This document shows positions 3,792 to 55,944 of a stretch of 64,000 nucleotides of DNA, in pieces. The notes beneath the pieces are model-generated. The model was given only the letters and a program-made list of their open reading frames with translations, was not told where the DNA came from and did not search any database. Each line of letters opens with the position of its first letter. The first letter of the stretch is position 1. This DNA comes from a virus (Duplodnaviria > Heunggongvirae > Uroviricota > Caudoviricetes): the IMG/VR virus record IMGVR_UViG_3300045988_155182. One strand, given 5' to 3'. The position numbers and the translations under genes were made by a program.

Positions 3792-3903
3792 CTATGCCAA
3801 CTTCCCAGACACATTCCCTTCCGTTTCCACTTCCAAAAACTGCCACCAGTCGCTATCATCCGCTCATTGCAATAAGTAAGTAACTACCTATCTGGTGAGC
3901 CAC

Positions 3904-4644
3904 ATGAGCCAAATCTTTTTTGATACCATTGACAACGACCAGTACGACTTCATGACAGAGTGGAATACCGCTGTTATGGACAAGTGGGTCGCTGAAAACA
4001 TTGGTTTGTCGCGCTGCAAAGACGAGGCTGAACTCTTCGAGACGAAGTGGTTTGATTACCGCGATATGCATCCTCTCATGGCCACCTGTCTGTTTACGGA
4101 GGCGTACAAACGTCAGTACTCAAATATCATGCTGACGCACGGTCGCGAACACTTTGAAACAGCTCCGTTCACCACCGGGTTAAAACGCCTGCCTTATCAG
4201 GAGTTGTCGACTGCCAATAAAACGTCGCTATGGAAAGCACGCCAGTTTGCTGATCGCTATTGCTGTTCATACGACTACTTTATCTCCACGGTTCTTTCCG
4301 CAGCTGCACGGCGTCTGTGGGACAAGTTGCCGCGCCCACAGCATTTATGGCAGCCAGAACTGATTGAGATATTCGAAGAGAAATTATCCAGACGCGCAAC
4401 AACCCGTCTGGATGACTCTCTGGTTAGCTTTAAGCATATGGGAGACATGCAGTTCAACCCGATTCAGGAAAGCTATTTTGAGTGGATTCTGGAGCGTTTG
4501 CGCACCATCCCTCGCAGCAAGCGCATACGCGCAATTTTCTCCGCTATCTGGCTAATGGAAATCGTTCCAGAGCGCCTTATTTCCGCCCACTTTCCAGAAG
4601 AACTGGAAGAAGCACGGCGGTTTATTGATCCCCTATCTAATTAA
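3904..4644 (+). CDS. Hypothetical protein upstream of the helicase (helicase-loader role is only a guess)
   Basis: Track ORF starts with GTG at 3895; ATG at 3904; 246 aa; no recognisable motif. Confidence 0.4.
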   Translation: MSQIFFDTIDNDQYDFMTEWNTAVMDKWVAENIGLSRCKDEAELFETKWFDYRDMHPLMATCLFTEAYKRQYSNIMLTHGREHFETAPFTTGLKRLPYQELSTANKTSLWKARQFADRYCCSYDYFISTVLSAAARRLWDKLPRPQHLWQPELIEIFEEKLSRRATTRLDDSLVSFKHMGDMQFNPIQESYFEWILERLRTIPRSKRIRAIFSAIWLMEIVPERLISAHFPEELEEARRFIDPLSN

Positions 4645-4687
4645 CTAATACTAGAAAACAATTTGTTTAAAAAACAAAGGAAAGCAC

Positions 4688-6028
4688 ATGACCGAACTTT
4701 GCCATACAGGACGCGGGCTGTCCGAAGAGTTTGATGAAGATTTTCAGAACAGATTGACGGCCTATTTTTGTCGTGATCACGAGTTTCTTACTCGTGCTGG
4801 AGATCTGGTTGTACCTAGCCAATTTGCCAATGCGGCCAATGCCATATTGGTTAATATGGTTTCGGGCTATTACCGTATGTACAAGAGCGCGCCCTCTTCA
4901 TCTGCGATTCTGGATATGCTTAAGCGTGCGAAACGCGATAAGACTATCCGTGAGGAACTATTCGCCGATGTTGTTGCTGCGTTTAAGCGCATCCTTGCAG
5001 AAAAATTGTCTGATACCTCGTACATGGTTGACCAGGTATCAACCTTCGCAAAAAGCGTAGCGTTTGATGATGCTCTGATTAAGGCTGCTGAACTGAAAGA
5101 GAAGGGCGACTTTCAGGGGGCGATGGCAATCATGGCCAAGGTTCAGCAGATTGGATCGAACGAAGCGACCGGAATCTATGACTACTACACCTCCGCAAGT
5201 GAGCGATTGAAAGCGCGTGAATATGAGGCTTCAGAGGAGTATGTGCCAAACAGCATTACAACTGGACTCCCTCTGCTCGATAGGTTGCTGTACCAAAAAG
5301 GCTGGGCGAAGCGTGAAATGGTGCTCTTCATGGGGTTCGCTAAATCCGGTAAATCGACCGCAATGGGTGAGTTTTCCATAAACGCAACGCTTGCTGGCTA
5401 CAATGTTCTGTATCTCTCGCTGGAGGTTCACACCAACATTTTGTCCGACCGCTTTGATGCAAGATTGTCGGAGACGGAAATGTCCAAGCTGGTGGAACGG
5501 CGCGATGAAGTTCATCGTAAGTTGGCAGAGTTGGGAGCCACTAAGGGGATTGGTAGTTTGTGGGTTGTTGAGCGTCCGTCAGGAAGTATGTCACCTGCAG
5601 ATCTGGACCGTATGCTTAACAGTATGAAAGCCAATGGCATGGTGCCTGACATGGTTGTTGTCGACTACGCAGATTTGATGCGTGCCAGTTATGACCTTCG
5701 TGATGATCGCGCCAATATTCGTAGTATCTACACCGATTTACGTGCTCTTTATGACAAGCATAACGTTGCTGGGATCACGGCATCGCAGACAAACCGTGAA
5801 GGTGGCGCGTCAGAAGTTGCCACAATGATGCACGCCGCCGATAACATCGAAAAAGTACGTATTGCTGACCTGGTAATAACGATCAACAAAACCGAAGAAG
5901 AAGAAGCGAAAGGAGAGGCTCGTCTCTACTTTGCTGGTTCACGTAACCAGCAGGGTGGGATCAGCATTCGCGTTAAACAAAACCTCGAACAAATGCGTTT
6001 CATTGAGCGAATCTTAGACGTTACCTAA
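4688..6028 (+). CDS. Replicative DNA helicase, DnaB/gp41 family
   Basis: Walker A GFAKSGKST, RecA-fold C-terminal domain with VVVDYADLM; conserved AGGAAAGCACATG start context. Confidence 0.8.
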   Translation: MTELCHTGRGLSEEFDEDFQNRLTAYFCRDHEFLTRAGDLVVPSQFANAANAILVNMVSGYYRMYKSAPSSSAILDMLKRAKRDKTIREELFADVVAAFKRILAEKLSDTSYMVDQVSTFAKSVAFDDALIKAAELKEKGDFQGAMAIMAKVQQIGSNEATGIYDYYTSASERLKAREYEASEEYVPNSITTGLPLLDRLLYQKGWAKREMVLFMGFAKSGKSTAMGEFSINATLAGYNVLYLSLEVHTNILSDRFDARLSETEMSKLVERRDEVHRKLAELGATKGIGSLWVVERPSGSMSPADLDRMLNSMKANGMVPDMVVVDYADLMRASYDLRDDRANIRSIYTDLRALYDKHNVAGITASQTNREGGASEVATMMHAADNIEKVRIADLVITINKTEEEEAKGEARLYFAGSRNQQGGISIRVKQNLEQMRFIERILDVT

Positions 6029-6034
6029 AAAATA

Positions 6035-6058
6035 AGCGTGGAGAACACCTCCACGCTT
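6035..6058 (+). terminator. Hairpin after the helicase gene (weak T-tract)
   Basis: agcgtggag aacacc tccacgct. Confidence 0.35.
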
Positions 6059-6109
6059 GATTCATTTGTGAAACAACTTTTCTTTTGCCAAACCACAAAA
6101 GAAAAACAC

Positions 6110-7288
6110 ATGAGCCTTTATGTTATATCAACATTTAGGTTGGTCACAATATTGCCTGTTAAAAGTGGAATTATCGTGAGCGAGCTGAAAGAGCTAATTG
6201 CCGAATTAGATTTTGAACAATGGTTGGATACTGAAGGTATCGTTTATCGACGTGGAGGCGTGAGTGCTCGCGGTCGTGAAGTGAATATCAAGGAATGTCC
6301 GGTATGCGGCAGCTCCAACTGGAAGGTATATTTCAATCTGACCAGTGGCGTCGGCAAATGCTTTGCTGGTGATCATCCCGAAGAGATTCAGTTCAATAAG
6401 CTGGTCTTCCTCAAGCACTACAGCGGCAAATCACGACGACAGTTCGAGGAATATGTGCAGAACGCCCTTCTTTCCCAGGGGTGGGCACCAAAGAAAGAAG
6501 AGATAGTGCTTGCAAGCACAGTCGAGTTAGAGGGACCACTTGCACTCCCTCGTCATTACGAACTTCCTATAGATGGCCGTCTTCCAGACTATCTGGTTGA
6601 ACGAAACATATCGCCTGAAATGGCAAAGTATTTTGACCTACGATACTGCGTCGAAGGTAAGCACGCTTATGTAGATCCGTATACAGATCAGGTTAAAGGA
6701 CAGATATTCGATATGCGAATACTGATACCGGTTTACGATCTGGATGGGGTAATGAAGACATTTCAGGGACGAGACATTACCGGTACAGCAGAACGCCGCT
6801 ACCTCTTTCCTATGCAGCTTCCAGCTTCAGGTAAATTTCTCTACAACGGCCATAATGCAGTCGGCAAACAGACTGTAGTTGTCTGTGAGGGTGCGTTCGA
6901 TGTTATGGGGGTCAAACGAGCTATTTTCGACGAAGAAACATTACGTGATTACGTGGAGCCAATAGGAACGTTCGGGATGCATCTATCTGGCAACACCACT
7001 CAGGATGCAGAAGATCAGTTGGGCGCGTTCCTGACGCTCAAAGCGCGTGGATTACGTAATGTGATCATGATGTGGGATAGTGAAAAGCAAGCTATACGTA
7101 ATACGATGGCCGCAGCCAGGCGACTGACCAGTATTGGTCTTAATGTCAAAGTGGCGTGTTTGGGCGAGGAAGGACTCGACCCGGGCGATGCAACGCCAGA
7201 GCAAATCATCAAAGCCTATTATCGGGCAAAACCGTATACCAAGCAGTTGGAGTTACAAAGCAAGGTTTTGGGCATTAAGGCTCTATGA
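6110..7288 (+). CDS. DNA primase (zinc-ribbon plus TOPRIM)
   Basis: CPVCGSSNW...CFAGDH zinc-binding motif and a TOPRIM-like VVVCEGAFDVMG; start set at the ATG at 6110 that carries the conserved aaaaacacATG context (track start 6038 is GTG inside the upstream hairpin). Confidence 0.75.
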   Translation: MSLYVISTFRLVTILPVKSGIIVSELKELIAELDFEQWLDTEGIVYRRGGVSARGREVNIKECPVCGSSNWKVYFNLTSGVGKCFAGDHPEEIQFNKLVFLKHYSGKSRRQFEEYVQNALLSQGWAPKKEEIVLASTVELEGPLALPRHYELPIDGRLPDYLVERNISPEMAKYFDLRYCVEGKHAYVDPYTDQVKGQIFDMRILIPVYDLDGVMKTFQGRDITGTAERRYLFPMQLPASGKFLYNGHNAVGKQTVVVCEGAFDVMGVKRAIFDEETLRDYVEPIGTFGMHLSGNTTQDAEDQLGAFLTLKARGLRNVIMMWDSEKQAIRNTMAAARRLTSIGLNVKVACLGEEGLDPGDATPEQIIKAYYRAKPYTKQLELQSKVLGIKAL

Positions 7289-7366
7289 TAACAATCACCT
7301 TTAAAATAAGTAGATGATTACTTATCTTTCTGTGAGAATACTTTCATCTGTTAGCTAGGAGTTGGT

Positions 7367-8143
7367 ATGAAAGACGAAATTCAGAAATTAGCCTGCGACA
7401 TCATTGATAAAACTGGTTTAGAAATCAGCGAGAGCAATCGGCTAGACATCATTGAAAAAGCCGTAAAAACAGCAATGGATCATATCGCCACTCGTTTGGT
7501 CGAGATCCCGCTACCAGGGCTACCTTATCTGAAAGTTGAGTTACACGTATGGGGTGAACCTTCTTGTTCACGGCGTTCTGCATTAGTTGTTTTTATTAGC
7601 AAAGAAAACCCGCTCAGTCTTAAAGTGCAGGTTGGTGCATGGATGGATGGAAAAGTGATCTACACAAATACCGTTTTTTGTCTTTCAAACGACGAAACTA
7701 TTGAAGCGGCCATTCAAGAAGCAGTTCTAGCAATGCGCAGCAGCGGTTTGATGAAGAATAACTACGAAGAGTACTTGCGTTCGATAAGTGGTGAAAAGAC
7801 ATTATCTCTGAAAGCAGATTTCGTTACCCCGAAAAATCTGTTGGAAGTCTTGCTTAATAAAGGGGCTAATGATGCCGTAAATGTAATCAGAGAGAGTGAG
7901 TATGCGTCTCTTTGCGACATGTGCAAAAGCCAGTTGGATCTGGTGCATATCGTTATTGATGCTGGGAAGGCATGTGATGGCGTAATGGCGGAATTTGCTT
8001 GGAAGGTGGTCAGGATTGCTAACGAATTACCGATGATAGAGCAAGAGGCCAAATCATACGCCACCAATCATGTCACAGAGCTTCTTGTCCCCTATCGCTT
8101 AGAAAGCAATCAGCGCAAGATGGTTAGCTGGGGAAGTTGGTAA
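7367..8143 (+). CDS. Hypothetical protein
   Basis: 258 aa ORF with ATG start and GGAG RBS, in the operon orientation; no recognised motif. Confidence 0.4.
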   Translation: MKDEIQKLACDIIDKTGLEISESNRLDIIEKAVKTAMDHIATRLVEIPLPGLPYLKVELHVWGEPSCSRRSALVVFISKENPLSLKVQVGAWMDGKVIYTNTVFCLSNDETIEAAIQEAVLAMRSSGLMKNNYEEYLRSISGEKTLSLKADFVTPKNLLEVLLNKGANDAVNVIRESEYASLCDMCKSQLDLVHIVIDAGKACDGVMAEFAWKVVRIANELPMIEQEAKSYATNHVTELLVPYRLESNQRKMVSWGSW

Positions 8144-8198
8144 TCTCTCCGCGCGTCGTTTTTTACGCAAATAACGATAGGTAAGTACAAGATTATTT

Positions 8199-8681
8199 AT
8201 GGCGGTAGTTGTGAAAGCTGATTTGTCAAAAATCCCTTCTATTTCAGGAAATAACGGTTATTCACTTCGTTGTGAGGAAGTAAAGATAAACGGTGAGTCG
8301 GCATATTGCAGCTACTCCGTATGCCAGCACACCATTCTTGCCTTCAAAGAAAACCGTCTTCCTCGAACGTCTTTCCAGTCGTGCGCAACCGCTATTAAAG
8401 CAGGCAAATGCAAGGCGTTAAAAATGATGGTTGAAGAGATTCGTAAAGGAGAATCTCTGTATTTCGAAGATATGACCGCACTCATTAAGGAGGTTGAAGA
8501 ACGGAATAAACAAGCCAGAACTATAAAACGAAAACGTGACAGTGTAACGATTAATAGCATGGTTAAGAAGAGCGCCACATCACAAACAGCGATCACTGAC
8601 GTGTATGCGGCGTTGATTGAAGAAACAACAAAAGAAACACATGAGCAAATCGATCAACATATGGAGGCAAAACAACAATGA
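8199..8681 (+). CDS. Hypothetical protein
   Basis: 160 aa ORF; its stop overlaps the start of the ligase gene. Confidence 0.35.
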   Translation: MAVVVKADLSKIPSISGNNGYSLRCEEVKINGESAYCSYSVCQHTILAFKENRLPRTSFQSCATAIKAGKCKALKMMVEEIRKGESLYFEDMTALIKEVEERNKQARTIKRKRDSVTINSMVKKSATSQTAITDVYAALIEETTKETHEQIDQHMEAKQQ

Positions 8682-10361: not shown

Positions 10362-10648
10362 GCAATTTAACTTCTTGGGACTGGTGGTTGGCCACCTATT
10401 TCTTAGCGGCCGGAGTCGCATTCGCCTTTTACGTAGGTCAGTTAGTCGTAAAACTGCTGCTGATTAAATTTGCCAGTCATAAACGTATCGATGATGGTCT
10501 GTGGCGTCTTGGCACCCTGGTGGAAACTCGCTACGGGCAACTTAAGGAGAACGAAACCATTACTATCCAAGCGAAACGATTCACTGCCACCATCACAAGA
10601 ACACCTAGTCGTAGAGTGGCCTTGATCAAAAAAGTCACAACCGAATAA
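10358..10648 (+). CDS. Hypothetical membrane protein
   Basis: 96 aa with a hydrophobic N-terminal segment (WDWWLATYFLAAGVAFAFYVGQLVV). Confidence 0.3.
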   Translation: MSNLTSWDWWLATYFLAAGVAFAFYVGQLVVKLLLIKFASHKRIDDGLWRLGTLVETRYGQLKENETITIQAKRFTATITRTPSRRVALIKKVTTE

Positions 10649-10649
10649 A

Positions 10650-11426
10650 ATTACAATGATAAGTATTTACTTACTTATCTTTTATGTATAAGATGACTTT
10701 GTTTTCGTTGAGACGCGACTGTTTGAACTTAAATACAAGTGCAAACGAAGAAGTCTATCTGGCAGTAGCCTAATAAGCCAAACACCAGCGAGGTCAGTTT
10801 CCAGCCTCGTTACCGAAATGGGATACACTGAGCGAGTGTGATTACAGAACGCAGGAGGGAACATGAATGTTCCCTCCGATGAAGTAACAGAATGGGCGGT
10901 TGGTATATTTTCAACTCCATATGACTCCCGGATTCTTAGCCACTGACCGCCCATCCTGTTACGTCATTTTGTTCAATTATGTCGTTTATACTGGGTTAAA
11001 AAGCGGCGACGTAGCCCGGCTGGTATGGTTAGCCAGCACACAACGTTGAGGCCATTACATTTTTATCAATTCTAAGGTTCTATTCACAGAGATACCGGCG
11101 AGCGTTGATATGTAACATGTTGGGCAAACATTCAATCGGAGTAGTGGCCTCAACGTTGTGAAGACAGGATTGTTGTGTAGGTTTAACCACTGTTGCCATT
11201 GGTGCCTGTTTTCACAACAAATGATTCCATACATCACATTGTATAAATTACAAAGTAGGTGCTGTCCTCAGAAACATCATCTACTTAAAGAGTTTGCCTT
11301 CTACTATTGAGCGAAGTCGAAAGCGTCTGGCACTAACGAAAAGTGCAAGTAGCGGTGCGTTTCCTGGCAGAAACTAAACCGTCGCGATTGGCACTGTTGA
11401 GTAATGAATACAGGCAGTGCTGAATT
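10650..11426. other. ORF-poor structured region upstream of the tRNA cluster (candidate ncRNA or processing region)
   Basis: No convincing ORF in ~780 bp; several long inverted repeats including a 20-bp pair at 11037-11056 / 11141-11160. Confidence 0.3.
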
Positions 11427-11501
11427 GATGGTGTAGCTCAGCGGTAGAGCAGTTGGCTGTTAACCAACTGGTCGGTGGTTCGAATCCACCCACCATCGCC
11501 A
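11427..11501 (+). tRNA. tRNA-Asn (anticodon GTT)
   Basis: Cloverleaf by eye: acceptor gatggtg/caccatc, D-arm gctc...gagc, anticodon loop ctGTTaa, T-arm ggtggTTCGAATccacc, encoded CCA. Confidence 0.85.
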
Positions 11502-11503
11502 AT

Positions 11504-11579
11504 GCCGGTTTAGCTCAGTTGGTAGAGCGCCTGCCTTGTAAGCAGGATGTCAGCGGTTCGAGTCCGTTAACCGGCACCA
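11504..11579 (+). tRNA. tRNA-Thr (anticodon TGT)
   Basis: Acceptor gccggtt/aaccggc, anticodon stem-loop cctgc-cttGTaa-gcagg (anticodon TGT), T-arm agcggTTCGAGTccgtt, encoded CCA. Confidence 0.85.
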
Positions 11580-11803
11580 ATACAACGATAAGATCATTAC
11601 GGTTAATCGTCGTTCATGTGCACAATGACTGGTCGAAAGGTAGTGATCTTACCGTTGTGGTGGATTCGCAGACTGATGCGATAGCTTTCTTGGATGTTAG
11701 GGAAATGCGGCCGCAAATCTTCCCTTTCGCGAGCGGTGATCGTCCGTAGTCCTAATTGGCTGCACCGTATGCCGGAGATTCAGTACCGGCCACCACAACG
11801 GCC

Positions 11804-11890
11804 GGAGAGTAGGGAGCATGGTGCTCAAGCGGTCTTGAAAACCGTCCCATTGCGCAAGCGATGATGGTTCGATTCCATTACTCTCCGCCA
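11804..11890 (+). tRNA. tRNA-Ser (anticodon TGA), type II with long variable arm
   Basis: Acceptor ggagagt/actctcc, anticodon loop cTTGAaa, long extra arm, T-loop GGTTCGATTCC, encoded CCA. Confidence 0.75.
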
Positions 11891-12045
11891 GACACAGCGT
11901 TGAGCGGTTTGGCCTTTTAATCAACTCGATTAAGACTCCGCTAACATAAACCAGACCGCTCAACGCTGTGATAGACAATTACGGCAGACGTTCTTAACCA
12001 TAGCTTGCTAACATCCTAGCAACACTTTTTTAAGCGCAAAATCCA

Positions 12046-12068
12046 AAGGGGCTTCGGCCCCTTTTTTG
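12046..12068 (+). terminator. Rho-independent terminator after the tRNA cluster
   Basis: aaaggggc ttcg gcccc followed by ttttttg. Confidence 0.6.
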
Positions 12069-12977
12069 TTAATGATTGCCTAGATATGATTTTAGTTCTT
12101 CTTTAATGATTAGTGAGTATTCTAAAATATCACTTAGTAAAAATTTTGCTCTGTTAAAATACCCACCAAAAGAACCTAAAATTTCAGATGGTCTTTCTAA
12201 GAGCATCACAATATCATCTTCTTGCACTTTAGTAATGTAACTTCTAACAGCTCTTTCTCCAATAACTCTTTTCTTACCGTTTATTTCAGATTCATCTAAA
12301 ACCTTATTTATAAATTTTTCTGTATCATTGAATCGTCCACTATTGTGTACTATTGTATGTCTTAGTAGTTCAATTAGCTTGATGTTAAAGCGATAGTTTT
12401 TGCCAATCTTGTTGTTTGTTTCTATCTCTTTGAAGCCAGGTATTTTATTTCTGAAAATTTTAGTTATTTTTTTCGATGGGTTACTTTTTGCTTTTAATAA
12501 TCTGTAATAAACTTCCCTTTTCCCAATTTCATCATCTTCAACCTTACCAAAATCACTTGAGGACCATAAATCATTTCGAACACATACAGTATAGACATAT
12601 ATTGCCTCAATATAGTCTTCCAGTAACTCATAGGCTTCAGTAATAACCCACTGATATTGTTTATTTTTCAAAGTATTACACAATCTTATCTTTTCTTCTA
12701 AATCAATGGCGCTGTTACCTATCTCTAATGTTGAACCTGTATATGGGTTTGAACATAAATGGCGAGCTAACGTTGTGCCACACTTAATCTTAATAGTTTC
12801 ATTAATATTAATAATAGTATCTGGATTCTGTGCATACTCCACTTCTTTAAGAAGACGTTTTATATTTTTCTTTGTTGTATCATTTATCTGATTTAAATAG
12901 TCAAAAAGTAAAGATATTTCTTCTCTAAATTCGTTGTATTTATTTTCAATCAAAGAATCAGACAACTTACCAATCAT
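12069..12977 (-). CDS. Hypothetical AT-rich protein; possible HEPN-type Abi-like protein
   Basis: 302 aa; the only sizeable minus-strand gene in this segment; strongly AT-rich codon usage; Rx4H motif (RHTIVH) near the C-terminal third; AT-rich upstream region at 12978-13150. Confidence 0.4.
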   Translation of the reverse strand: MIGKLSDSLIENKYNEFREEISLLFDYLNQINDTTKKNIKRLLKEVEYAQNPDTIININETIKIKCGTTLARHLCSNPYTGSTLEIGNSAIDLEEKIRLCNTLKNKQYQWVITEAYELLEDYIEAIYVYTVCVRNDLWSSSDFGKVEDDEIGKREVYYRLLKAKSNPSKKITKIFRNKIPGFKEIETNNKIGKNYRFNIKLIELLRHTIVHNSGRFNDTEKFINKVLDESEINGKKRVIGERAVRSYITKVQEDDIVMLLERPSEILGSFGGYFNRAKFLLSDILEYSLIIKEELKSYLGNH

Positions 12978-13150
12978 TAAAACCTCTATAAAATGTACAT
13001 TTCAAGGCAATCCTTACTGTAATCTATTGTCGTAATCACTTCAATTGTTTACTAGTCAATCAATAAGTTACTACATACTTATCAAAAAAATCTGTTTGTA
13101 GTATAGTCTGATATGTTCGAATCAATATTTATAAAGGTATTTGTTAAGTT

Positions 13151-13396
13151 ATGACGATCACTATCTACGGACGAGATAACTGCTCATACTGCAAACGTGC
13201 GGTCGAGCTGGCGAAGCAACTAAAGGGACATGGCTACGGTGATTATGAGTACATCGACATCACCACTGCCGGTATCGACAAGGAAAAACTAAGTGAAATT
13301 GTTGGTAAACCGGTAGAGACTATCCCCCAGGTGCTGATCGATGGCCAGCCGATTGGCGGATACACAGAACTGGCTGCATACGTCAGCACCCTCTGA
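13151..13396 (+). CDS. Glutaredoxin (Grx1/NrdC-like reductant for ribonucleotide reductase)
   Basis: CSYC active site (CxxC), KPVETIPQVLIDGQPIGGYTEL closely resembles E. coli glutaredoxin 1. Confidence 0.85.
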   Translation: MTITIYGRDNCSYCKRAVELAKQLKGHGYGDYEYIDITTAGIDKEKLSEIVGKPVETIPQVLIDGQPIGGYTELAAYVSTL

Positions 13397-13401
13397 TTTT
13401 A

Positions 13402-13427
13402 ACGGCTCACAGGAGCCGTTTTTATTC
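13402..13427 (+). terminator. Rho-independent terminator after the glutaredoxin gene
   Basis: acggctc acag gagccgt followed by ttttatt. Confidence 0.6.
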
Positions 13428-13606
13428 CCACCAAACTCACTCCCATTTCCCTTAAAATTCAAAAAACAACGTCAAAATGATTCCATACCTACTATGTATG
13501 GAATCATTGCTGAAAATGAGTTACTTTTACTCTTGATCCTATAAGAATCTATGCCTAATATACTGTTTACTTATACAGTGCATCGGCGTAACTCGGTGAT
13601 TGTCAT

Positions 13607-14710
13607 ATGAAAAATAGCTTTGACAGAGCACGCGCTGCGGAGAACACCTCAAAAGAGGCGATAGAGTATCTCGAAAGAGCATCTCAAATGCAGGCCGTTA
13701 TGATCTCCCAGGTCAGCAATGACATGAGATTCTCGGACGCATTCATGTTATTCACTCGCTTATCTCTGCTGATAACCAGACGTCGGCCAGAGATCGCTGT
13801 TCATTGTATTTTGATACATGTTTTGCCGCACATTGCCGATGTAAAAGTAAGTGACATTAATAGGTTCATGGTGAACCAACTGGTCAACCCACTAATACTG
13901 GATGGCAAAATTGTTATGGGCCGCCGCGTTTTCTCTCTGATGAAGCAGTTCCTTAGCTGGTGCGCCTTCCAGGGGATGATAGACGTGTCACCGTTGAACG
14001 ATATGTCACTTAACAAAGTTGCCGGTGGCGCAAAGCCCACACCTCGCGAGCGGAAGCTGACCGACGCAGAGGTATGGGTGTTCTGGAATATATGGGACTA
14101 CTTCAATGTGTGTGCTGGTACAAAATGGGCGGCCAGGCTATGTCTTGTATCCGCAAGACGACCTGACGAAGTACTGCGGGCTAAAAAAAGTGAGTTCAAT
14201 CTTAAGCGTGGGGTTTGGAATCAAGGCAAGAGGAACAAATCTGCCCGTGAGCATTCTCTGCCTTTAAGCTCATTAATGCGCACTTGTATTGAAGAGTTGT
14301 TCGAATATGGTAAAGACAGCCAGTGGCTCGTGCCTTCGAATAAAAAAATCGGGAAAGACCTTCCTATGTCTAAAGTGGCAATAGCCCAGGCATTACGTCG
14401 TATTCTGGAACGACCAGAACTGATGGAGCTTGAGCCATTTACACCCCGAGATTTGCGCCGTACTGCGCGTAGTTACTTCCCAGCATTAGGCATAAGCCAG
14501 GAGGTATCACGTAAAATCATGAACCACAGTCTTGAGGGGATAGATCGGGTCTACGACCGGCACGATTATATGGACGAGATGCGAGACGCCTTAGAAAGTT
14601 TCTCGACGTACATCGCATCAATCGTAGAGCAACCGGATTTAGACGAAATTGACCACAAATTTAAGGGAGATCGTCTATCAACAGAGCTTATTCGTGTAAA
14701 TTTTTCATAG
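13607..14710 (+). CDS. Tyrosine recombinase (integrase or Cre-like resolvase family), divergent
   Basis: C-terminal catalytic region with RRPDEV..., TPRDLRRTARSYF (R in place of the usual H of HxxR) and NHSLEGIDRVYDRHDY (box II with the tyrosine); N-terminal third not recognisable. Confidence 0.6.
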   Translation: MKNSFDRARAAENTSKEAIEYLERASQMQAVMISQVSNDMRFSDAFMLFTRLSLLITRRRPEIAVHCILIHVLPHIADVKVSDINRFMVNQLVNPLILDGKIVMGRRVFSLMKQFLSWCAFQGMIDVSPLNDMSLNKVAGGAKPTPRERKLTDAEVWVFWNIWDYFNVCAGTKWAARLCLVSARRPDEVLRAKKSEFNLKRGVWNQGKRNKSAREHSLPLSSLMRTCIEELFEYGKDSQWLVPSNKKIGKDLPMSKVAIAQALRRILERPELMELEPFTPRDLRRTARSYFPALGISQEVSRKIMNHSLEGIDRVYDRHDYMDEMRDALESFSTYIASIVEQPDLDEIDHKFKGDRLSTELIRVNFS

Positions 14711-15091
14711 AGACTTTATGGCCTCAACAACCTTTTGTGATGCGCCTTTCTCTTTACCGAATCGCTCGTTATATGCAGCAAGAACCTGTTTTTCGTCCTC
14801 GTTAAGAGGAGCAGTGCCTTCTTTGTATAAAAATGCTGCGAGTTCGGGTTGGCGTTCTTCCAGCACCATCATCATAAGACGACTTGGCTCAATGCCCAGT
14901 GCCAGCGCCAGCGGACGAACCTTATCGATAGGCAAAGGAATTTTGCCGCTTTTAATTAAAGAAAGGTTGTTGGCGTTTTTATACCCAATTGTTTTGGCTA
15001 TCTGGGCCTGGCTCATAGGTGAGGATTCAATCAACCCTGCGATAAAAGCAGCGTAGCGACTTTCTATAAATTCAATCTTGTTATCAGACAT
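14705..15091 (-). CDS. HTH (XRE/Cro-CI-like) transcriptional regulator
   Basis: N-terminal helix-turn-helix MSQAQIAKTIGYKNANNLSLIKSG; convergent with and overlapping the 3' end of the recombinase gene. Confidence 0.6.
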   Translation of the reverse strand: MSDNKIEFIESRYAAFIAGLIESSPMSQAQIAKTIGYKNANNLSLIKSGKIPLPIDKVRPLALALGIEPSRLMMMVLEERQPELAAFLYKEGTAPLNEDEKQVLAAYNERFGKEKGASQKVVEAIKSL

Positions 15092-15342
15092 GGTTACAAC
15101 CTTTGCGCGTTCAATTCTCTCTGGTAAGTGCTTACCGATATTACATCAAAGGTTAGGGTTGTAAAGCTATTATCATTTTTTTCGATAGGCACTTAAAAGA
15201 CCGGTTAAAGGCCATTGCACGGAGAAAAATTAGCCCAAAACAGGTAAGAAAATCAACTTGCATATGATATGAATGTATTCAGTATTGATACAAATTTTAG
15301 TAGTATTCCTTACCATAGTATAAGTTAGAATGGATTGATTGA

Positions 15343-15555
15343 ATGAACACCACTATTTCCAGCCTAATCGCTCTTGAGATCGGACACGTACAGAAATTAG
15401 CTGATGAGTGTGTAGCTGACATCCTCACCGATCTACCGAATGAGCAGATTCAGGTTGGTGTGAATGACACAACTGGATTTATATTCGAACTTAACAACAA
15501 ACGCTTCACGCTTCTCAATACCGGCTCCGGGTCTTTAGCCGTCAGAATCTGTTAA
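15343..15555 (+). CDS. Hypothetical small protein
   Basis: 70 aa ORF with ATG start between the regulator and the vWA gene. Confidence 0.25.
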   Translation: MNTTISSLIALEIGHVQKLADECVADILTDLPNEQIQVGVNDTTGFIFELNNKRFTLLNTGSGSLAVRIC

Positions 15556-17762: not shown

Positions 17763-17857
17763 TTAAAACAGCCTTAATGATAAGTAACTACTTATCATAG
17801 TTAATGGTATATTTATATAAGAACTTGAACGCTCATTAGAGAACAAAGGAAAAGCGC

Positions 17858-22822: not shown

Positions 22823-23095
22823 AAAGAATTATGGCGCTTGTTGAGGAAGTCACTCCTCTTACGCACTTTGTTTTGCCATGCCGGCAGTTAGCTTCTGCCT
22901 TTGACTATTCATGCGGCAACCCCGCATTTCGCCACAATGGGCAATTCACTTTTATGGAATAAACTGGCCGTTGTGTCGATTTAATTAGCATGGCCTTACC
23001 ATGCTAATTTATTCAACTTGTACAATCCTACAAATCTATCCACTCAGGCTTACACCGTCTTCGTTATTGTAGAAATGAGGATCATCAGCGTTGAA

Positions 23096-23311
23096 TCAGC
23101 TTAGAGCAACGACATTTGCTGCTGCTGGGCCTTTAGCACCATTCTCGATAGAGAATTCGACCTGCTGGCCTTCTTCCAAAGTGCGGAAATTATTACTCTG
23201 AATTGCCGAAAAATGTACAAAAACATCTTTACTGCCATCAGCAGGAGAAATAAAGCCAAAGCCTTTATCAGAGTTAAACCATTTTACTAAACCAGTCATT
23301 TTATTAGACAT
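23096..23311 (-). CDS. Cold-shock protein, CspA family
   Basis: [38 protein letters not shown]... with RNP motifs; start reassigned to the internal ATG at 23309-23311. Confidence 0.85.
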
Positions 23312-23640
23312 AGATATTACCTTCTTAATTTTGTGAGCCACATAGTGCGGCGAGAATTTGATCTGTATAGATTGGGACTTACTTAGGCACTTAAGGAGGA
23401 GACTCACGAAGAAGGGAAATCAGAAGATAACACTGAACTGAGACTGCTTTACTAAAACTGCTTACATAAGGTCTGTCTTGCAAACCAACGATGCTATTAA
23501 CGCATACCCCTTCTTTTCATGCAACCTTTATTTTTCAAAGATAACTAATTTTTGTCACCATTGGTTTAGTAAACGTTAACGAACCAGACGATGCCAGACA
23601 CCTTTACAGAGAACAGATGCCCGCCAATTGGCGGGCATCA

Positions 23641-24489: not shown

Positions 24490-24770
24490 TCGCCTCCGAT
24501 AATAGTATTCTATTCACAGTGTTGACATCTGTCAACGGCGACTGAATTTCATCCGTTCATGCCACACCCCCATCCATCTCATGTATGTGACCTAAAGATG
24601 GTCAGCACAGCTTACCAAAATAAGACAACTAATTATCTTCGGTGATCTCAATATTTTCCCCTGAACAAAGTTGACATGACGCCATAAACCCGTTCTCTGT
24701 TTGATATAATTGATACAGATTTTATAAGTAGGAACCTATTAGAGTGAACACTGATATTTTTTCTAAAATC

Positions 24771-25175: not shown

Positions 25176-25292
25176 TTTTTGATAGATAATAAGTAAGTAC
25201 TGATCTATCATTTAACAGCTCGAAAGAGCCACGAATGAACGAAAGCCCAACGCGCATAGCGCCATCGGCCAAATCACAACAAGGAGAAACAC

Positions 25293-28668: not shown

Positions 28669-28675
28669 ACACAAG

Positions 28676-28700
28676 GCGTCCACAGGACGCCTTTTTTATC
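28676..28700 (+). terminator. Rho-independent terminator after the recombinase gene
   Basis: ggcgtcc acag gacgcc followed by ttttttat. Confidence 0.65.
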
Positions 28701-28760
28701 TCTTGAAAATATATAAGTACTTACTTATTATTTTCGCATAACAACCACATAGGAAAACAC

Positions 28761-29838: not shown

Positions 29839-29886
29839 CGCAATTATCTTATTAAGAAAACAATTTGTTTAAAGGGTTAAGAAAAT

Positions 29887-30312: not shown

Positions 30313-30367
30313 TCGCCTATTCATAACTAACAAAATAAGTAAACACTAACCACAAAAGGAAAAACAC

Positions 30368-30643: not shown

Positions 30644-30858
30644 GTTTACAGTAAAATTTATATAAGTTAGTATCTACCTATCATGAAGATTTTTATTGAA
30701 TACTTGTTACTCATCGTTTCAATAGCTTTTGTCATCGACTGCATTTTCACTGGTGTCATTCGTAAAGTCTTTTCCCCGGTGCACGACGTAGTCATAAACG
30801 CTTTGGCTATCGTGCTCGTATTTAATTCAGCATTTGATGTAATCAAAGAGGTGGCAGC

Positions 30859-34339: not shown

Positions 34340-34593
34340 CCCTCCAGATCGTATATTGGCGTAGATAGAATCTACGCCCCCTCAAAATAGCTCTCATAGC
34401 GTTCTACAGTGATCCTGTCTTATTTTTAGTCATACAGACAAGCAAAGTTGCGCCACGATAAATAGGTATATACTTACTTATAAATTTTGTATATTAAGGC
34501 GCTCGTTTCATTCCTAACATACCGTTATGCATAGTTGTTTACCTCCTCATTGCTCTTAGAATTTGTATCAAAATAACCACAAAGGAAAAACAC

Positions 34594-39137: not shown

Positions 39138-39171
39138 TTTCATTGATAGGTAAGTGCTTATCTATTAACAT

Positions 39172-39202
39172 GGGCCACTATATTTAGTGGCCCTCTTTAT
39201 TT
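39172..39202 (+). terminator. Hairpin terminator before nrdA
   Basis: gggccacta tattt agtggccc followed by tctttattt. Confidence 0.55.
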
Positions 39203-43722: not shown

Positions 43723-43791
43723 TTGTAGGTAGTTATCTATCTGTGTATATTGCGTTGGCGCGTTAAATTTCTGAAACAACTATTCGTTTTT

Positions 43792-43818: not shown

Positions 43819-43893
43819 CTGTCTGGTCTTGTTCTCTCAATAAATGTAAACTCACGCAATGAATAAGTGGTTACTTATCTTTGTGAGGTTTTT

Positions 43894-48545: not shown

Positions 48546-48728
48546 CGTTCCCCTACTGAAAATAAAGCCCATAGAGAGCTTTATAGTGCTGGGCAAGCCA
48601 ATCACATACCCAGCACCACAAAAACGCGCCAGAGAGCTTCTCGTTTGCATTTCTGGCGTGTTTTATTTGATTGCCAGACATAAAATCAAATGCAAAAATA
48701 GGTATTTACTTACCTATCGAGAAAGAAG

Positions 48729-49345: not shown

Positions 49346-49408
49346 CCTGCTTCTGTATATATAAATAACTACATATTAATTATTAATATACGGAAGCAGG
49401 CTGTTTTG
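49346..49408 (+). repeat. Conserved long hairpin element, copy 2 (terminator-like, after the methyltransferase)
   Basis: cctgcttctgtatatataaata ... tatacggaagcagg followed by ctgtttt; arms match 3730..3791. Confidence 0.6.
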
Positions 49409-49738: not shown

Positions 49739-49744
49739 TAGATA

Positions 49745-50322: not shown

Positions 50323-50913
50323 ATGACGACGAAGACACCAGCCCGATCGCAAGAAAAAACTCGCAAAAAAGCCAAAAACAAAAATTCTCCCCGCACCAAT
50401 TCCACAACGCCTGTCGTAGAGTTCAATCCCCAGCTTAAAACCGTGAAAATCTTCAGTGATGGCTCTTGCCTTAAAAATCCGGGTGGCCCGGGCGGTTACG
50501 GTATAGTTCTCCAGTATCGTGGTGAGGAACGCGAGTTCTCAGATGGTTTTCATAGCACCACCAATAACCGCATGGAGATGATGGGGGCACTTATCGGGCT
50601 GGAGCGTTTGAAATATCCATGCAACGTTATTTTGCACTCTGATAGCCAGTATCTGAAAAACGGCATGACACAGTGGATGAAATGGTGGAAACGCAATGGA
50701 TGGGTGACTTCTGACAAAAAACCGGTAAAGAATGTTGATCTGTGGAAGCGTCTGGATGAGGCCGCAAGTCGACATAATGTTCGCTGGAAGTGGGTTAAAG
50801 GCCACGCCGGGCATCGTGAAAATGAAATATGTGATCGACTCGCGAAGATCGCAGCTTTTTCCGCAGCAGATATGCCTCACAAGAAAGATATTGGTTTTGT
50901 TTATAACAAATAG
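50323..50913 (+). CDS. rnhA: Ribonuclease HI
   Basis: [18 protein letters not shown]...[10 protein letters not shown]...[21 protein letters not shown]...[13 protein letters not shown]...KGHAGH closely matches E. coli RNase HI; start at the ATG with AGGAG RBS (track start 50272 is GTG). Confidence 0.85.
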
Positions 50914-51061
50914 TAAGTAAGTGTTTACCTATCATTTTAAATCATGTATCTTATCGGCGTCAGGATGACAATGTGTCGGTAAGACACAGTTCCAGGATGG
51001 AACGAGAAAGGCGGCTGGCAATCGCCAGCCGCAACTCTTTCTGACACTGGATGGAGTCCAC

Positions 51062-51556: not shown

Positions 51557-51565
51557 GGCGGTTGT

Positions 51566-51754: not shown

Positions 51755-51847
51755 CGGCTGTTAGTGCATATGCATTGACCATCTCTGCGTAAGCAATTTA
51801 TGTAATTAGAAAACAACTTGTTTTGACAAATAATAAAAGGAAAACAC

Positions 51848-52431: not shown

Positions 52432-52433
52432 TG

Positions 52434-52464
52434 ACAAGGGCCATTTGGCCCTTGTGTTTCGTTG
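52434..52464 (+). terminator. Hairpin terminator
   Basis: acaagggcc attt ggcccttgt followed by gtttcgtt. Confidence 0.5.
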
Positions 52465-52570
52465 ACCGAAATAGAGAGTTTGCACCTTTACGTTTAGCTT
52501 GCTCCCCTTTTATGCCACATCACAATAAAGCCAATAAGAAAACAACTTGTTTAAGCATTAGGAAAAACAC

Positions 52571-53140: not shown

Positions 53141-53195
53141 TCTGATATGGCCGCATGATCGGCCATATTGTGTTGATAAAAAACAAGGATGAAAA

Positions 53196-53477: not shown

Positions 53478-53479
53478 TT

Positions 53480-54094
53480 ATGTTCGGGATGTCAATTACT
53501 CAATCAGATGGAAGTTTGTGGATGAGTCCAGAATTTACTCCGCAAAATCTGATTAATAAAGGGACAATGTCTACATCTAAAGGTTCTGTTTTTCAAACAT
53601 CAATCCCATCAAACAAATCATGCTTTTTCTTCATAAAAAGCAGTAATAAGGCGAACATGATGTTTATTCATGAGCATAGTAACGGATACAATGCTCTCAG
53701 ATTGCATCAGGTAAATGGTAGCCCCGGAACAATAACAGTTTATGCTTTTTCTGATATGGTGTTACCACATTCTGGCTATGGCATTGCCATGTATAACAGC
53801 GCAGGCGCAATGGTGTATCACGGTGAGATGATGCCCCTTGATGCGAAACTTATCACTATTTCTGACCCTCAATTTACAATAGATATGGGGTATCCATGTG
53901 CGGTAATGCCTGCTATGGTTGGGGTATATAACTATAGACGAACCGATTACGACAGACCTGTCTATGTAACAATGACAGGTGCAACTGGAAACCAAGTATA
54001 TAACGGTCAATGGTATTCCGGTAATGTCACATGGGATATTAAGAAGATTTATACAAACAAAATTCTGGTGATAAATACCTCCAAGTATGATTAG
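53480..54094 (+). CDS. Hypothetical protein (AT-rich cargo)
   Basis: ATG at 53480 just after the upstream stop; 204 aa. Confidence 0.35.
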   Translation: MFGMSITQSDGSLWMSPEFTPQNLINKGTMSTSKGSVFQTSIPSNKSCFFFIKSSNKANMMFIHEHSNGYNALRLHQVNGSPGTITVYAFSDMVLPHSGYGIAMYNSAGAMVYHGEMMPLDAKLITISDPQFTIDMGYPCAVMPAMVGVYNYRRTDYDRPVYVTMTGATGNQVYNGQWYSGNVTWDIKKIYTNKILVINTSKYD

Positions 54095-54197
54095 CCAATG
54101 CCTTTATTTGAAGGATTGCCTGTTTATTTCTATTTAGTACCTTTTCATTTTTGAAATAATTGCACCATTAAACAAATCACTTCTTAATGGTGCAATT

Positions 54198-55883
54198 ATG
54201 AATACAGCCCTTTCCATCATCGACGATGCCAACTCAAACACTGCTATCGACTATCGGAAGGAAATGAACGTCATCCACGAAATTGTGGCCGAGTGCGAGA
54301 AAGAGATCGCCTTCATGTATCAGGTTCACGACTTCGTTTATGGCGACGAACGCCACAACATGATTAATCGCCTGCTGAGACTAAACCATCGACCAGATGA
54401 AGATCGCTCGCGTTTAAATCGAGGTTGGTTGGATAAAGTCGATCTGGAATGGGTGAAACAGAATATTTGGGCCGAGTACTGGAGGAAGGTCACGGACATG
54501 ACTAACGTTTTGCTGATCATGCCAGCTTCCCGTCGAGATGAGTGGCGCGAGCAGTTTATAGAGGGCAAACAGGAAGTCATCAAAACTGACAGAACCGGCT
54601 ACCAGATGAAGGTTAAAGAGTTCGTTGGTGTACCGGAGTTCAAAGCAGAAACGGTCATACCCACGATGCTTAATTTGCTGAATGACAGGCACAAATATCT
54701 CTCTGAGCGCGTGTATGGCTTGTTTAAGGCGCTGAGTCCTGCGCACAAGACAAATAAGACAAACGGTTTCAGCGAGCGTCTGATAATCGCTGACTGCATT
54801 TCTGATTTCTGGCGGGACAGCGTTAGCGTGAACTATCGCAAAGAGGACTACATCGACGATCTGCGTGTCTTGCTTCATTTCTTCGCGCACAAAGAATTTA
54901 TTACCATCAACCGCACTGCTGAGGTGCTATCAGCTGCGTATCGAGCAAACGACTGCCAGACCGGTGACTGGATGAACGTCGATGGAAATCTGATGCGCGT
55001 GAAGATGTTCAAGAACGGCAACGTTCACTTTGAAATACATCCTGACGTGGCCTGGAAGTTGAATGAGGTGCTGGCTTACAGTATGCCTGCTGCAATCCCC
55101 GCGCCATGCCGAACTGCGCCAAAAACACGGGCACCAAAGCAGTTCGGGTTAATCCAGAAGACGATCTCCGTGCCGGTTCGCACTGCGCTTCGTGACGGGC
55201 GATTGAGCAAAGACAAAGGCGTATGGTACTTCTCTGATTCAGCTCTCCAGAAGTCGCAGGTGGAAGAGCTTGAGCGCACACTGAGCTTCATTGGCGGCGT
55301 GCAGGAGAAAAAGCACTGGCAGTTCCCGTATGACATCGGCCATACGCTAAATACGATTGTGGCTACCGGTTTAATACCGGATACAAAATCACACCAGTTC
55401 TACCCTACCCCACGCTTGATTGCTGAGTACGTTGCCAGAGCCACTGAATTGAAGCCTGGTGAGAAGCTGCTGGAGCCTCAAGCCGGACGTGGGGATCTTC
55501 TGGCCTATATTAACGCCGATCTGGAAGATGTTACCTGCATAGAAATCGCACCTCTCTTCGCTGATATCCTGCGTGGAAAAGGGTATACGAACACGATTTG
55601 CTGCGACTTCATAAAGTGGTCTGAGGACAACGCAGGTTATCAGTTCGACAAAATCGTTATGAACCCGCCGTACTCGCTTGGTCGTCATAGAGAGCACACG
55701 CTGGCTGCGCTGGGGCATCTGAAAGTCGGCGGGCGTCTTGTAGCAGTATTGCCGGGCACTGCGCCAATACTGGACTGGATGACGATGGATAATTACGTTT
55801 ATGCCAGAGGGAAGTCGTTTACCAACGAGTTTGAAGACACAGGGATCACAGTCAGCGTATACGTTTTCAAACGCGTTAAATGA
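54198..55883 (+). CDS. Putative SAM-dependent N6-adenine DNA methyltransferase with a large N-terminal domain
   Basis: C-terminal motif I-like LEPQAGRGDL and catalytic NPPYS; 561 aa. Confidence 0.55.
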   Translation: MNTALSIIDDANSNTAIDYRKEMNVIHEIVAECEKEIAFMYQVHDFVYGDERHNMINRLLRLNHRPDEDRSRLNRGWLDKVDLEWVKQNIWAEYWRKVTDMTNVLLIMPASRRDEWREQFIEGKQEVIKTDRTGYQMKVKEFVGVPEFKAETVIPTMLNLLNDRHKYLSERVYGLFKALSPAHKTNKTNGFSERLIIADCISDFWRDSVSVNYRKEDYIDDLRVLLHFFAHKEFITINRTAEVLSAAYRANDCQTGDWMNVDGNLMRVKMFKNGNVHFEIHPDVAWKLNEVLAYSMPAAIPAPCRTAPKTRAPKQFGLIQKTISVPVRTALRDGRLSKDKGVWYFSDSALQKSQVEELERTLSFIGGVQEKKHWQFPYDIGHTLNTIVATGLIPDTKSHQFYPTPRLIAEYVARATELKPGEKLLEPQAGRGDLLAYINADLEDVTCIEIAPLFADILRGKGYTNTICCDFIKWSEDNAGYQFDKIVMNPPYSLGRHREHTLAALGHLKVGGRLVAVLPGTAPILDWMTMDNYVYARGKSFTNEFEDTGITVSVYVFKRVK

Positions 55884-55944
55884 TAGGTAAATACTTACTT
55901 AATTTGTGTAAGAATGTAATAACTAAACGATAAGAGAAAAACAC

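Follow-up and report, generated by a model that had tools for sequence, protein, structure and literature searches.

Dispersed palindromic sites as candidate operators of a phage regulator in SSU5-like phage-plasmids

What does a palindromic sequence do that recurs in one intergenic gap after another along a phage-plasmid? This question is raised by a 64-kb stretch of DNA from the IMG/VR virus record IMGVR_UViG_3300045988_155182 (the window). The window is an SSU5-like phage-plasmid sequence with 97-99% identity to Escherichia phage Cyrano (OV696614), the pLF82 plasmid-prophage of Escherichia coli LF82, and it corresponds to about 28.6-92 kb of Cyrano. Salmonella phage SSU5 is about 80% identical to it. 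Cyrano is a ciprofloxacin-inducible phage-plasmid present at about 5.5 copies per cell (PMC9928086). The window contains partition, replication, recombination, nucleotide-metabolism and accessory genes, nearly all on the plus strand; a minor set on the minus strand consists of maintenance genes. A preliminary description of the sequence had noted a recurrent GATA(A/G)GTA motif and proposed that it is a promoter or operator class, possibly that of a temporal class or a sigma factor. In this study, we analyzed the motif by sequence statistics, by comparison with 80 related loci taken from IMG/VR, and against the published LF82 RNA-seq table (supplement of PMC9928086). We propose, with a probability of roughly 0.55, that the GATAAGTA/TACTTATC sites are double-stranded DNA operators of a dimeric phage regulator, most likely the 128-amino-acid (aa) XRE-family repressor encoded in the window.

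A palindrome family between genes

GATARGTA was found 18 times on both strands of the window against 2.41 expected, and 18 matches were reached in 0 of 100 shuffles. The recurrent family is therefore real. Alignment of the sites gave an inverted repeat with the half-site G-R-T-A-R-G-T-(A). When up to two mismatches were allowed, the 18-bp palindrome GRTARGTAnnTACYTAYC occurred 15 times (0.10 expected). A 22-bp form with an N6 spacer was present 12 times (0.00 expected), and a 14-bp form 14 times (1.45 expected). Runs of at least four nTAn tetramers numbered 10 against 0.6 expected, and the registers are nested 4 bp apart because TA recurs at every fourth base of the element. Merging the 14-, 18- and 22-bp matches yielded 17 strong site clusters, all 17 of them intergenic, besides a few weaker sites. 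One cluster fell inside a spurious open reading frame (ORF) of the de novo gene call, and the same stretch is intergenic in the Cyrano annotation. Of the ATAAGTA occurrences, 11 fell in the non-coding part of the window (6.4 kb) and 3 in the coding part (57.6 kb). The sites lie just 3' of stop codons and 5' of the next gene, as first described; the median distance is about 16 nt on the stop side and about 41 nt on the start side. Distances to the start codon span 0 to about 128 nt.

Thirteen of the 15 sites listed in the preliminary description are solid (3871, 7305, 10658, 17778, 25181, 28714, 34461, 39145, 43721, 43861, 48699, 50911 and 55882), and the other two are weak, 8176 in its right half and 30335 with three mismatches. 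Three sites had been overlooked, at 13062-13083, 15123-15136 (on the repressor promoter) and 30661-30682, together with weaker ones at 24723 and 49741. The site at 17778-17797, called a perfect palindrome, is a perfect 9-bp inverted repeat, but its arms are separated by a 2-nt spacer, AC.

The same sites were then found across the family. The complete genomes contain 22 strong clusters in Cyrano and 22 in SSU5, compared to 0-1 in shuffled sequences, and orthologous site positions are retained although identity between the genomes is only about 80%. Sites within their late regions lie at the terL-portal junction, in the 3' end of the portal gene, after the major capsid gene, and before the tail tube, tail fibre and holin genes. 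For the cobT-cobS site and five others, conservation across the related loci was 0.90-0.97 in the motif and 0.69-0.91 in the upstream flanks. At the cobT-cobS site (17779) the values were 0.90 and 0.69 for motif and left flank in 52 distinct orthologues, and at site 10658 they were 0.95 and 0.77 in 34. One consensus is common to the E. coli, E. fergusonii, Salmonella-like and Klebsiella-like groups, while their flanks diverge.

A virulent distant relative, Pseudomonas phage nickie, is syntenic with the SSU5-like elements and keeps the same order of genes (ParB-like genes, terminase, helicase, primase, ligase, cobT/S, dnaE, SSB, recA, sbcCD, ruvC and nrdAB). In the 100 kb of nickie scanned, neither k-mer enrichment nor an inverted-repeat-family search detected an equivalent motif; the latter procedure recovers the TAAGTA and AAACAA families in both Cyrano and SSU5. 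Neither the motif nor the repressor was found in nickie, and the two co-occur across the family.

We also asked whether the element is read as DNA or as RNA. An inverted repeat directly after stop codons, with A-rich sequence upstream and T-rich sequence downstream, could act in the transcript as a hairpin that terminates transcription weakly or in both directions, marks a site of processing or affects RNA stability, and a GC-rich hairpin does follow several sites. The predicted RNA hairpins of the sites were weak, with a mean of -4.3 kcal/mol and values of 0 to -2.2 kcal/mol at four conserved sites, against -13 to -17 kcal/mol for real terminator hairpins in the window. Among the non-Watson-Crick arm positions on the plus, transcribed strand, 24 were of the G:U type and 34 of the A:C type, and thus G:U pairs were not favored. 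The palindromy often runs on through the center, which would be the loop, and the sites share a specific sequence beyond mere pairing. The Rfam scan gave no match at the sites. The terminator scan of the window reported none of them, and they do not conform to an intrinsic terminator, which is a stable GC-rich stem-loop with a U-tract behind it. An action in RNA is thus very unlikely. Taken together, weak hairpins, absent G:U preference, central palindromy, shared sequence and the missing Rfam match indicate, at the level of sequence, that the element is recognized as duplex DNA by a symmetric protein in a sequence-specific manner. Another candidate function, stop codons in three frames (TAR in the left half, and likewise on the other strand in the right half), was rejected; it leaves the conserved G and T positions and the invariance of the sequence unexplained.

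Other repeats were also noted in the window. As the preliminary description had stated, the GATA(A/G)GTA family is separate from the AAACAA/TTGTTT family, AAACAAnTTGTTT. Copies of AAACAAnTTGTTT are located at 628-640, 4656-4668, 29858-29870, 51811-51823 and 52540-52552 of the window, with 9 copies in Cyrano and 11 in SSU5. Every copy has a TAAGA, TTAGA or CTAGA box before it and a start codon 24-43 nt after it, and one lies in the parA promoter region. This family may be the site of another regulator or of a partition (centromere-binding) protein. A long terminator-like inverted repeat, CCTGCTTCTGTATA...(AT-rich)...TATACGGAAGCAGG with a T-rich tail, is present in two copies (3732-3783 and 49347-49399), and its AT-rich loop holds motif-like TAAGT/TACTTA fragments. 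In addition, a ribosome-binding context, AAAGGAAAA(A/C)ACA(C/T)ATG, recurs before many genes, for example at 30358, 34584, 41623 and 52561. It is probably part of what had earlier been taken for A-rich intergenic motifs.

Promoters, expression and a candidate repressor

In a scan with the sigma-70 consensus, promoter-like sites were scarce in the phage-plasmid, fewer than in shuffled sequences. Nine of the 25 promoters predicted on the plus strand of the window overlap or abut palindromic sites (10622, 13079, 17754, 25183, 28703, 30645, 30657, 39143 and 48671). In the promoter-poor late region of Cyrano, this was the case for three of eight (3521, 9005 and 15526). By our estimate the sites make up about 1% of the sequence. 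About half of them overlap predicted promoters, and five more lie, by eye, about 30 bp upstream of the extended -10-like boxes TGTGAGAAT, TGTAAGAAT, TATAAGAT, TGGTATATT and TGTATATT. The palindrome centers range from about -42 to about +11 relative to the predicted promoters. An offset profile showed no peak of strong -10 matches at a fixed distance from the site center on either strand, and a promoter element of fixed geometry was rejected for this reason. Because the register is so variable, a repressor acting by steric hindrance fits better than a sigma or activator element. Of the two halves of the original proposal, the operator half is thus the better supported, with palindromes in or abutting sigma-70 cores and a copy on the repressor promoter. 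The temporal-class or sigma-factor half found no support, as the same element stands before early genes for replication and nucleotide metabolism and across the late structural and lysis region, its register varies, and the element has no annotated sigma factor or RNA polymerase.

Next, we compared the sites with expression in LF82. Genes behind sites were at background level in the lysogen grown in LB. CYRAN_56, which follows the near-consensus promoter at 28703-28731, was at the detection floor in this condition and was induced in macrophages at 6 h. Log2 expression in macrophages at 6 h rose directly after some sites, from 6.0 to 8.5 between CYRAN_11 and CYRAN_12, from 4.1 to 7.6 between CYRAN_55 and CYRAN_56, and from 4.8 to 8.8 between CYRAN_59 and CYRAN_60, the last of these steps corresponding to site 30661. 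The genes after Cyrano sites 9029 and 59408 also rose in macrophage-grown bacteria. The minus-strand maintenance genes and the putative repressor are expressed in the lysogen. These minus-strand genes (toxin-antitoxin, repA and CYRAN_43) have no sites, the only exception being the repressor's own promoter. This pattern agrees with silencing of site-bearing promoters in lysogeny and their partial release under stress.

The candidate binder matches the transcriptional regulators of PHROG 8 (E=1.3e-11) and, weakly, Pfam HTH_19. In its AlphaFold model, residues 11-80 (pLDDT 81-87) form a five-helix N-terminal domain that superposes on 434 Cro, C.AhdI, C.BclI, SinR, DdrO and HigA at 1.5-3 Å over 62-72 residues, with Foldseek E-values of only 0.01-0.1. 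No solved structure was matched by sequence. A homologue search with the protein returned only SSU5-like plasmids, at 55% identity or more. In the LF82 lysogen, expression of its gene exceeded background about 10-fold. Of about 80 related loci, 75 contain the repressor gene together with the upstream integrase and the divergent 70-aa gene. Identity of the repressor falls to 55%, yet the helix-turn-helix stretch GYKNxNNLSLIKSGKIPLP is near-invariant, which matches the invariance of the DNA consensus.

A predicted repressor promoter, TTTACA-16-TAATAT, lies at 15165-15138 on the minus strand and is followed directly by GGTAAGT(G/A)CTTACC. This block is the best conserved of the 250-nt divergent region in all lineages (conservation 0.97). 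The extended block TGGTAAGT(G/A)CTTAC(C/T)GATATTACA is invariant across lineages in which the repressor itself is 56-100% identical. The arrangement at 15123-15136 is that of a putative classical autoregulatory operator on a predicted promoter. The product of the divergent 70-aa gene, which is induced in macrophages, is a possible Cro or antirepressor partner of the switch. SSU5 lacks the integrase, the XRE repressor and the 70-aa gene through a deletion of about 3 kb (at about 42.6 kb) relative to relatives that are 95-99% identical, as defined against one related locus (L061, 4577-7548). SSU5 was isolated as a lytic phage with its operators still intact, and its lytic behavior is plausibly due to loss of the repressor module.

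Copy number above chance, location in regulatory DNA and a copy on the predicted promoter of a repressor expressed in the lysogen are together what a dispersed operator regulon displays. In the proposed mechanism, the repressor would occupy GRTARGTA-nn-TACYTAYC sites and their nested 14- and 22-bp variants in the plasmid-prophage state, about 20 copies in the window and about 22 strong ones per whole genome. Most of these would cover the -35, spacer, -10 or start site of lytic sigma-70-type promoters, where the bound repressor would exclude RNA polymerase. Sites between genes without an obvious promoter may serve as roadblocks or cooperative anchors, and through the copy after the -10 of its own promoter the repressor would limit its own expression (negative autoregulation). 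Upon loss or inactivation of the repressor, all lytic units would be released together. The motif, its placement, its conservation and its promoter overlap were observed in silico, and we infer from them both the binding of the repressor to the sites and repression by that binding.

Several observations weigh against this interpretation. The link to the 128-aa protein is drawn from one promoter-proximal site, co-occurrence and helix conservation, and other conserved small proteins, such as the 70-aa gene product, may be the binder instead. Half-sites occur at three spacings 4 bp apart, more freedom than a rigid dimer would be expected to allow. The promoters were called by consensus matching, and the overlap with them is inflated because the motif ends TTGATA and TATCAT resemble promoter hexamers. 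Repression is not uniform, since CYRAN_34, the homologue of the gene after site 7305, is moderately expressed in the lysogen. The resemblance to the target of the host protein SlmA, discussed below, does not fit neatly with a simple repressor-operator arrangement. Finally, an unrelated 62-kb metagenomic phage contig, IMGVR_UViG_3300030106_001081, carries at least 10 copies of the 18-bp core and, in the approximately 35 kb that could be read, no repressor homologue, RNA polymerase or protein shared with SSU5-like elements. Its copies have the form AACC-GATAAGTAATTACTTATC-AAAA and lie in the early region at a near-fixed 20-26 nt from start codons.

Further features of this contig were recorded. 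It encodes Pol A, a helicase, a terminase and a DarB-like giant protein. Copies of AACCGATAAGTAATTACTTATCAAAA stand just upstream of early genes (L095 8397-10470, L096 1074-6037 and L093; contig and relative), and two more flank a direct-repeat set, GTAATGTTCG. The motif was absent from contigs related to IMGVR_UViG_3300030106_001081.

Table 1. Palindromic sites and switch-region genes in the window, with predicted promoters around them
Coordinates	Sequence or gene	Placement	Form and mismatches	Promoter context and conservation
3871..3892	AATAAGTAAGTAACTACCTATC	11 nt before ATG 3904 (CYRAN_31 homologue)	22-bp class, 1 mismatch; nested 18-bp, 1 mismatch	conserved in Cyrano and SSU5
7305..7326	AATAAGTAGATGATTACTTATC	before gene at 7367	22-bp class, 1 mismatch	centered about -30 of extended -10-like TGTGAGAAT (promoter geometry by eye)
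8176..8201	weak site; left half GATAGGTAAGTA good, right half poor	overlaps gene start 8199	22-bp class, 2 mismatches	
10658..10679	perfect 22-bp site GATAAGTATTTACTTACTTATC	3' side: TATAAGAT box, then conserved non-coding stretch upstream of tRNA cluster	0 mismatches	predicted promoter 10622-10651 ends 6 nt upstream
13062..13083	AATAAGTTACTACATACTTATC	divergent gap before glutaredoxin-integrase genes	22-bp class, 2 mismatches	overlaps -35 of predicted promoter 13079-13107
14705..15091 (minus)	128-aa XRE-family helix-turn-helix regulator, CYRAN_45 homologue ('putative repressor')	candidate binder		
15123..15136	14-bp palindrome GGTAAGTGCTTACC	directly downstream of -10		predicted repressor-gene promoter
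15343..15555 (plus)	70-aa gene, CYRAN_46 homologue (PHROG 2627)	divergent gene		co-conserved with repressor
17779..17796	perfect 18-bp site GATAAGTAACTACTTATC	between cobT-like and cobS-like genes	0 mismatches	conserved TGnTATATT extended -10 downstream
24723..24740	weak candidate TATAAGTAGGAACCTATT	directly before uvsY-like gene	3 mismatches	conserved in Cyrano
25181..25210	long site GATAGATAATAAGTAAGTACTGATCTATCA	before gp32-like SSB gene	18-bp class, 2 mismatches	in spacer and -10 of predicted promoter TAGATA-17-TATCAT, 25183-25211
28709..28730	ATATATAAGTACTTACTTATTA	GC-rich terminator 28673-28693 upstream		fills spacer of near-consensus predicted promoter TTGAAA-17-TATTAT, 28703-28731 (10/12 consensus matches)
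30334..30351	weak candidate AATAAGTAAACACTAACC (listed in preliminary description)	only left half convincing	3 mismatches	
30661..30682	TATAAGTTAGTATCTACCTATC	abuts ATG 30683	2 mismatches	overlapped by predicted promoters 30645-30673 and 30657-30684
34457..34482	GATAAATAGGTATATACTTACTTATA	before SbcD-like gene	run of six nTAn tetramers	upstream of TGTATATT
39145..39166	GATAGGTAAGTGCTTATCTATT	before nrdA; GC-rich hairpin 39172-39193 after	18-bp class, 1 mismatch	within predicted promoter TTGATA-17-TAACAT, 39143-39171
43724..43741	TGTAGGTAGTTATCTATC	1 nt past stop of MazG-like gene	18-bp class, 2 mismatches	
43862..43879	AATAAGTGGTTACTTATC	14 nt before thyX GTG start	18-bp class, 2 mismatches	Cyrano counterpart is a perfect site, ATAAGTAATTACTTAT
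48697..48718	AATAGGTATTTACTTACCTATC	10 nt before methyltransferase gene start	1 mismatch	overlaps -10 and +1 of predicted promoter 48671-48699 (TG extension)
50912..50933	AGTAAGTAAGTGTTTACCTATC	overlaps stop codon of RNase H-like gene	1 mismatch	
55882..55903	GATAGGTAAATACTTACTTAAT	overlaps DUF4942 gene stop	18-bp class, 1 mismatch	centered about -30 of TGTGTAAGAAT (promoter geometry by eye)

Some other features of the window were noted in passing. The non-coding stretch 10680-10760, directly 3' of site 10658, shows very high conservation among 34 distinct relatives; it may represent a small RNA or form the leader of the tRNA transcript. A trio of tRNA genes (Asn-GTT, Thr-TGT and Ser-TGA) lies at 11427-11890. 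Beside the immunity region, a 302-aa ORF at 12069-12977 on the minus strand has no Pfam match. It falls within a low-GC stretch (12001-14000, 36% GC), is not in Cyrano and is found in only 7 related loci, and it thus represents a variable accessory insertion. At 23071-23489, also on the minus strand, Rfam reported a full-length match to the cspA thermoregulator 5' untranslated region (187.6 bits), which comes with a cold-shock-protein-like ORF as an accessory gene cassette of the phage-plasmid.

Other regulators were considered as well. CYRAN_114 (Cyrano 100780-101301, minus strand, outside the window) is labelled a transcriptional regulator. It is a full-length member of the FljA family (PF03614, E=1e-80), which represses phase-1 flagellin; its C-terminus gives a weak Hfq-like match, and it is conserved in SSU5. 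By its sequence, the phage-plasmid may repress host flagellin through this protein. It was rejected as the binder of the palindromes, being more simply a flagellin-repressing accessory gene. A LexA box before the divergent 70-aa gene was also rejected, as the CTG-N10-CAG spacing was not fitted.

Alternative explanations for the sites

A positive factor, either a phage activator or an alternative sigma factor, might use the palindrome to define a temporal class of promoters. Such elements are known from the late promoters of P1, where a palindrome by the -10 is served by Lpa, and from the middle promoters of T4, where the MotA box lies at -30. Many lytic operons are preceded by sites. The sites stand at about -30 from extended -10-like boxes at 7305, 10658, 17779, 34457 and 55882, and in the spacer at about -20 in promoters 25183, 28703, 30657 and 39143. 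Expression steps up just past some sites in stressed cells, a sigma-factor gene is annotated beside cobS in the distant relative Rhizobium phage RHEph10, and the spacing to start codons in the unrelated metagenomic phage is near-fixed. However, the register to predicted -10 elements spans about 50 bp, the same element stands before early and late genes, and some promoters are near-consensus (10/12) yet silent in the lysogen. The copy downstream of the repressor-promoter -10 is in a repressing position. An alternative sigma factor or a phage RNA polymerase would be expected to have a cognate gene, and no sigma factor, RNA polymerase or activator is annotated in Cyrano or SSU5; the element is also palindromic and its distances vary. 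We therefore regard a positive factor as unlikely. The sites could also be mainly protein roadblocks ('stoperators') or insulators at gene ends, which stop read-through from constitutive plasmid and moron genes. The short distance to the upstream stop, the overlap of several sites with the stop itself and the very short gaps within some late operons (26 nt between terL and portal in Cyrano, for example) are consistent with this idea. Expression also falls across some sites, from CYRAN_30 to 31, 34 to 35, 64 to 65 and 16 to 17. At many of these drops there is an ordinary GC-rich terminator or a long hairpin, about half of the sites lie on predicted promoters, and palindromes carry no orientation signal for polarity. 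A mainly roadblocking role is accordingly improbable, although the operator interpretation leaves room for it at individual sites.

Two further proteins could bind the palindromes. The element encodes two ParB_N-domain proteins, and in Cyrano and SSU5 the first ParB-like gene is closely preceded by a weaker site, which would suit centromere-like or KorB-like sites. Dispersed palindromic ParB or KorB sites occur in N15 and RK2. The ParB-like genes and their neighbors are kept in nickie, which has no motif, and these proteins were rejected as binders on this ground. The sites follow lytic promoters and not the partition locus, and the parA promoter region bears the other palindrome family, AAACAAnTTGTTT. 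This explanation is hardly credible. The other protein is the host nucleoid-occlusion factor SlmA, whose site is GTGAGTACTCAC; position 3 tolerates either purine and position 6 either pyrimidine (PMC3020112). The core GTAAGT|ACTTAC fits the corresponding 12-bp pattern GTRAGY|RCTYAC, and the repressor-promoter copy GTAAGTGCTTAC (15124-15135) matches the degenerate SlmA sequence GTRAGYRCTYAC exactly. With at most one mismatch allowed, Cyrano had 14 matches and SSU5 had 17, where about 3 were expected, and nearly all of them are motif sites. The window itself has one exact match and four motif-site matches at one mismatch, and its dominant half-site spacing is 4-8 bp longer. Most sites deviate at critical positions (G5 and its partner; PMC3020112). 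The better-conserved arrangement has its halves 4 or 8 bp further apart, the conserved flanks exceed 12 bp, and a strictly intergenic, promoter-linked placement is unexpected for SlmA sites. The likeness is one of sequence only, and recruitment of SlmA is most improbable. A combined role, in which the operator network doubles as an array of SlmA sites and a low-copy phage-plasmid couples its position or repression state to the inhibition of cell division, would be just as improbable. In a less exotic variant, a 108-kb enterobacterial plasmid-prophage might be silenced in the manner of stoperators by an XRE repressor whose half-sites are recognized in registers of 4 bp (14, 18 or 22 bp).

Significance and comparison with known systems

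Clinical Enterobacteriaceae commonly harbor SSU5-like phage-plasmids, among them pHCM2, pLF82/Cyrano and many plasmids of Klebsiella, Salmonella and E. coli, and resistance genes are carried on these elements. Our literature search found no description of operators, promoters or a repressor for them. The operator sequence and the candidate repressor make their lysis-lysogeny switch directly testable, and the pair points to a possible way of inducing or curing these plasmids. The motif also provides a sequence signature for recognizing the family and its promoters.

In P1, a plasmid-prophage of Enterobacteria of about 100 kb, the single repressor C1 acts at many scattered operators, mostly over the promoters of lytic functions. 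These operators are asymmetric 17-bp sites bound by the 283-aa C1, and the late genes are controlled indirectly via Lpa. The system proposed here is similar in its host group, its plasmid-prophage state, its single proposed repressor and its dispersed sites overlapping promoters. It is unlike P1 in that its sites are palindromic and differ from the C1 consensus (compared by description). The 128-aa XRE-type candidate has no similarity to C1, and the same site also occurs throughout the late region. The predicted fold matches that of 434 Cro and related regulators (C.AhdI, C.BclI, SinR and DdrO). The operators of 434 and lambda Cro-cI and of restriction-modification C proteins resemble those described here in being palindromic, with half-sites about one helical turn apart and a site on the regulator's own promoter. 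In those systems two to six operators cluster at a single switch region, whereas here one clear copy lies at the switch and about 20 are dispersed.

The stoperators bound by gp71 of mycobacteriophage L5 and other cluster A phages are present in tens of copies in short intergenic gaps genome-wide, including structural operons. They are asymmetric 13-bp sites in fixed orientation to transcription, some overlap stop or start codons, and they silence the lysogen genome-wide. The sites of the SSU5-like elements share the many copies in short gaps, including those between structural genes, and the location of some copies at stop or start codons. In contrast to the L5 sites with their single orientation, they are inverted repeats with a symmetric consensus and symmetric flanks, about half lie on predicted promoters, and neither the host nor the repressor family is related. 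By the literature search, the proposed operator network is probably new for the SSU5-like family, whereas P1 and the mycobacteriophages already provide examples of the principle of one repressor acting at many dispersed operators.

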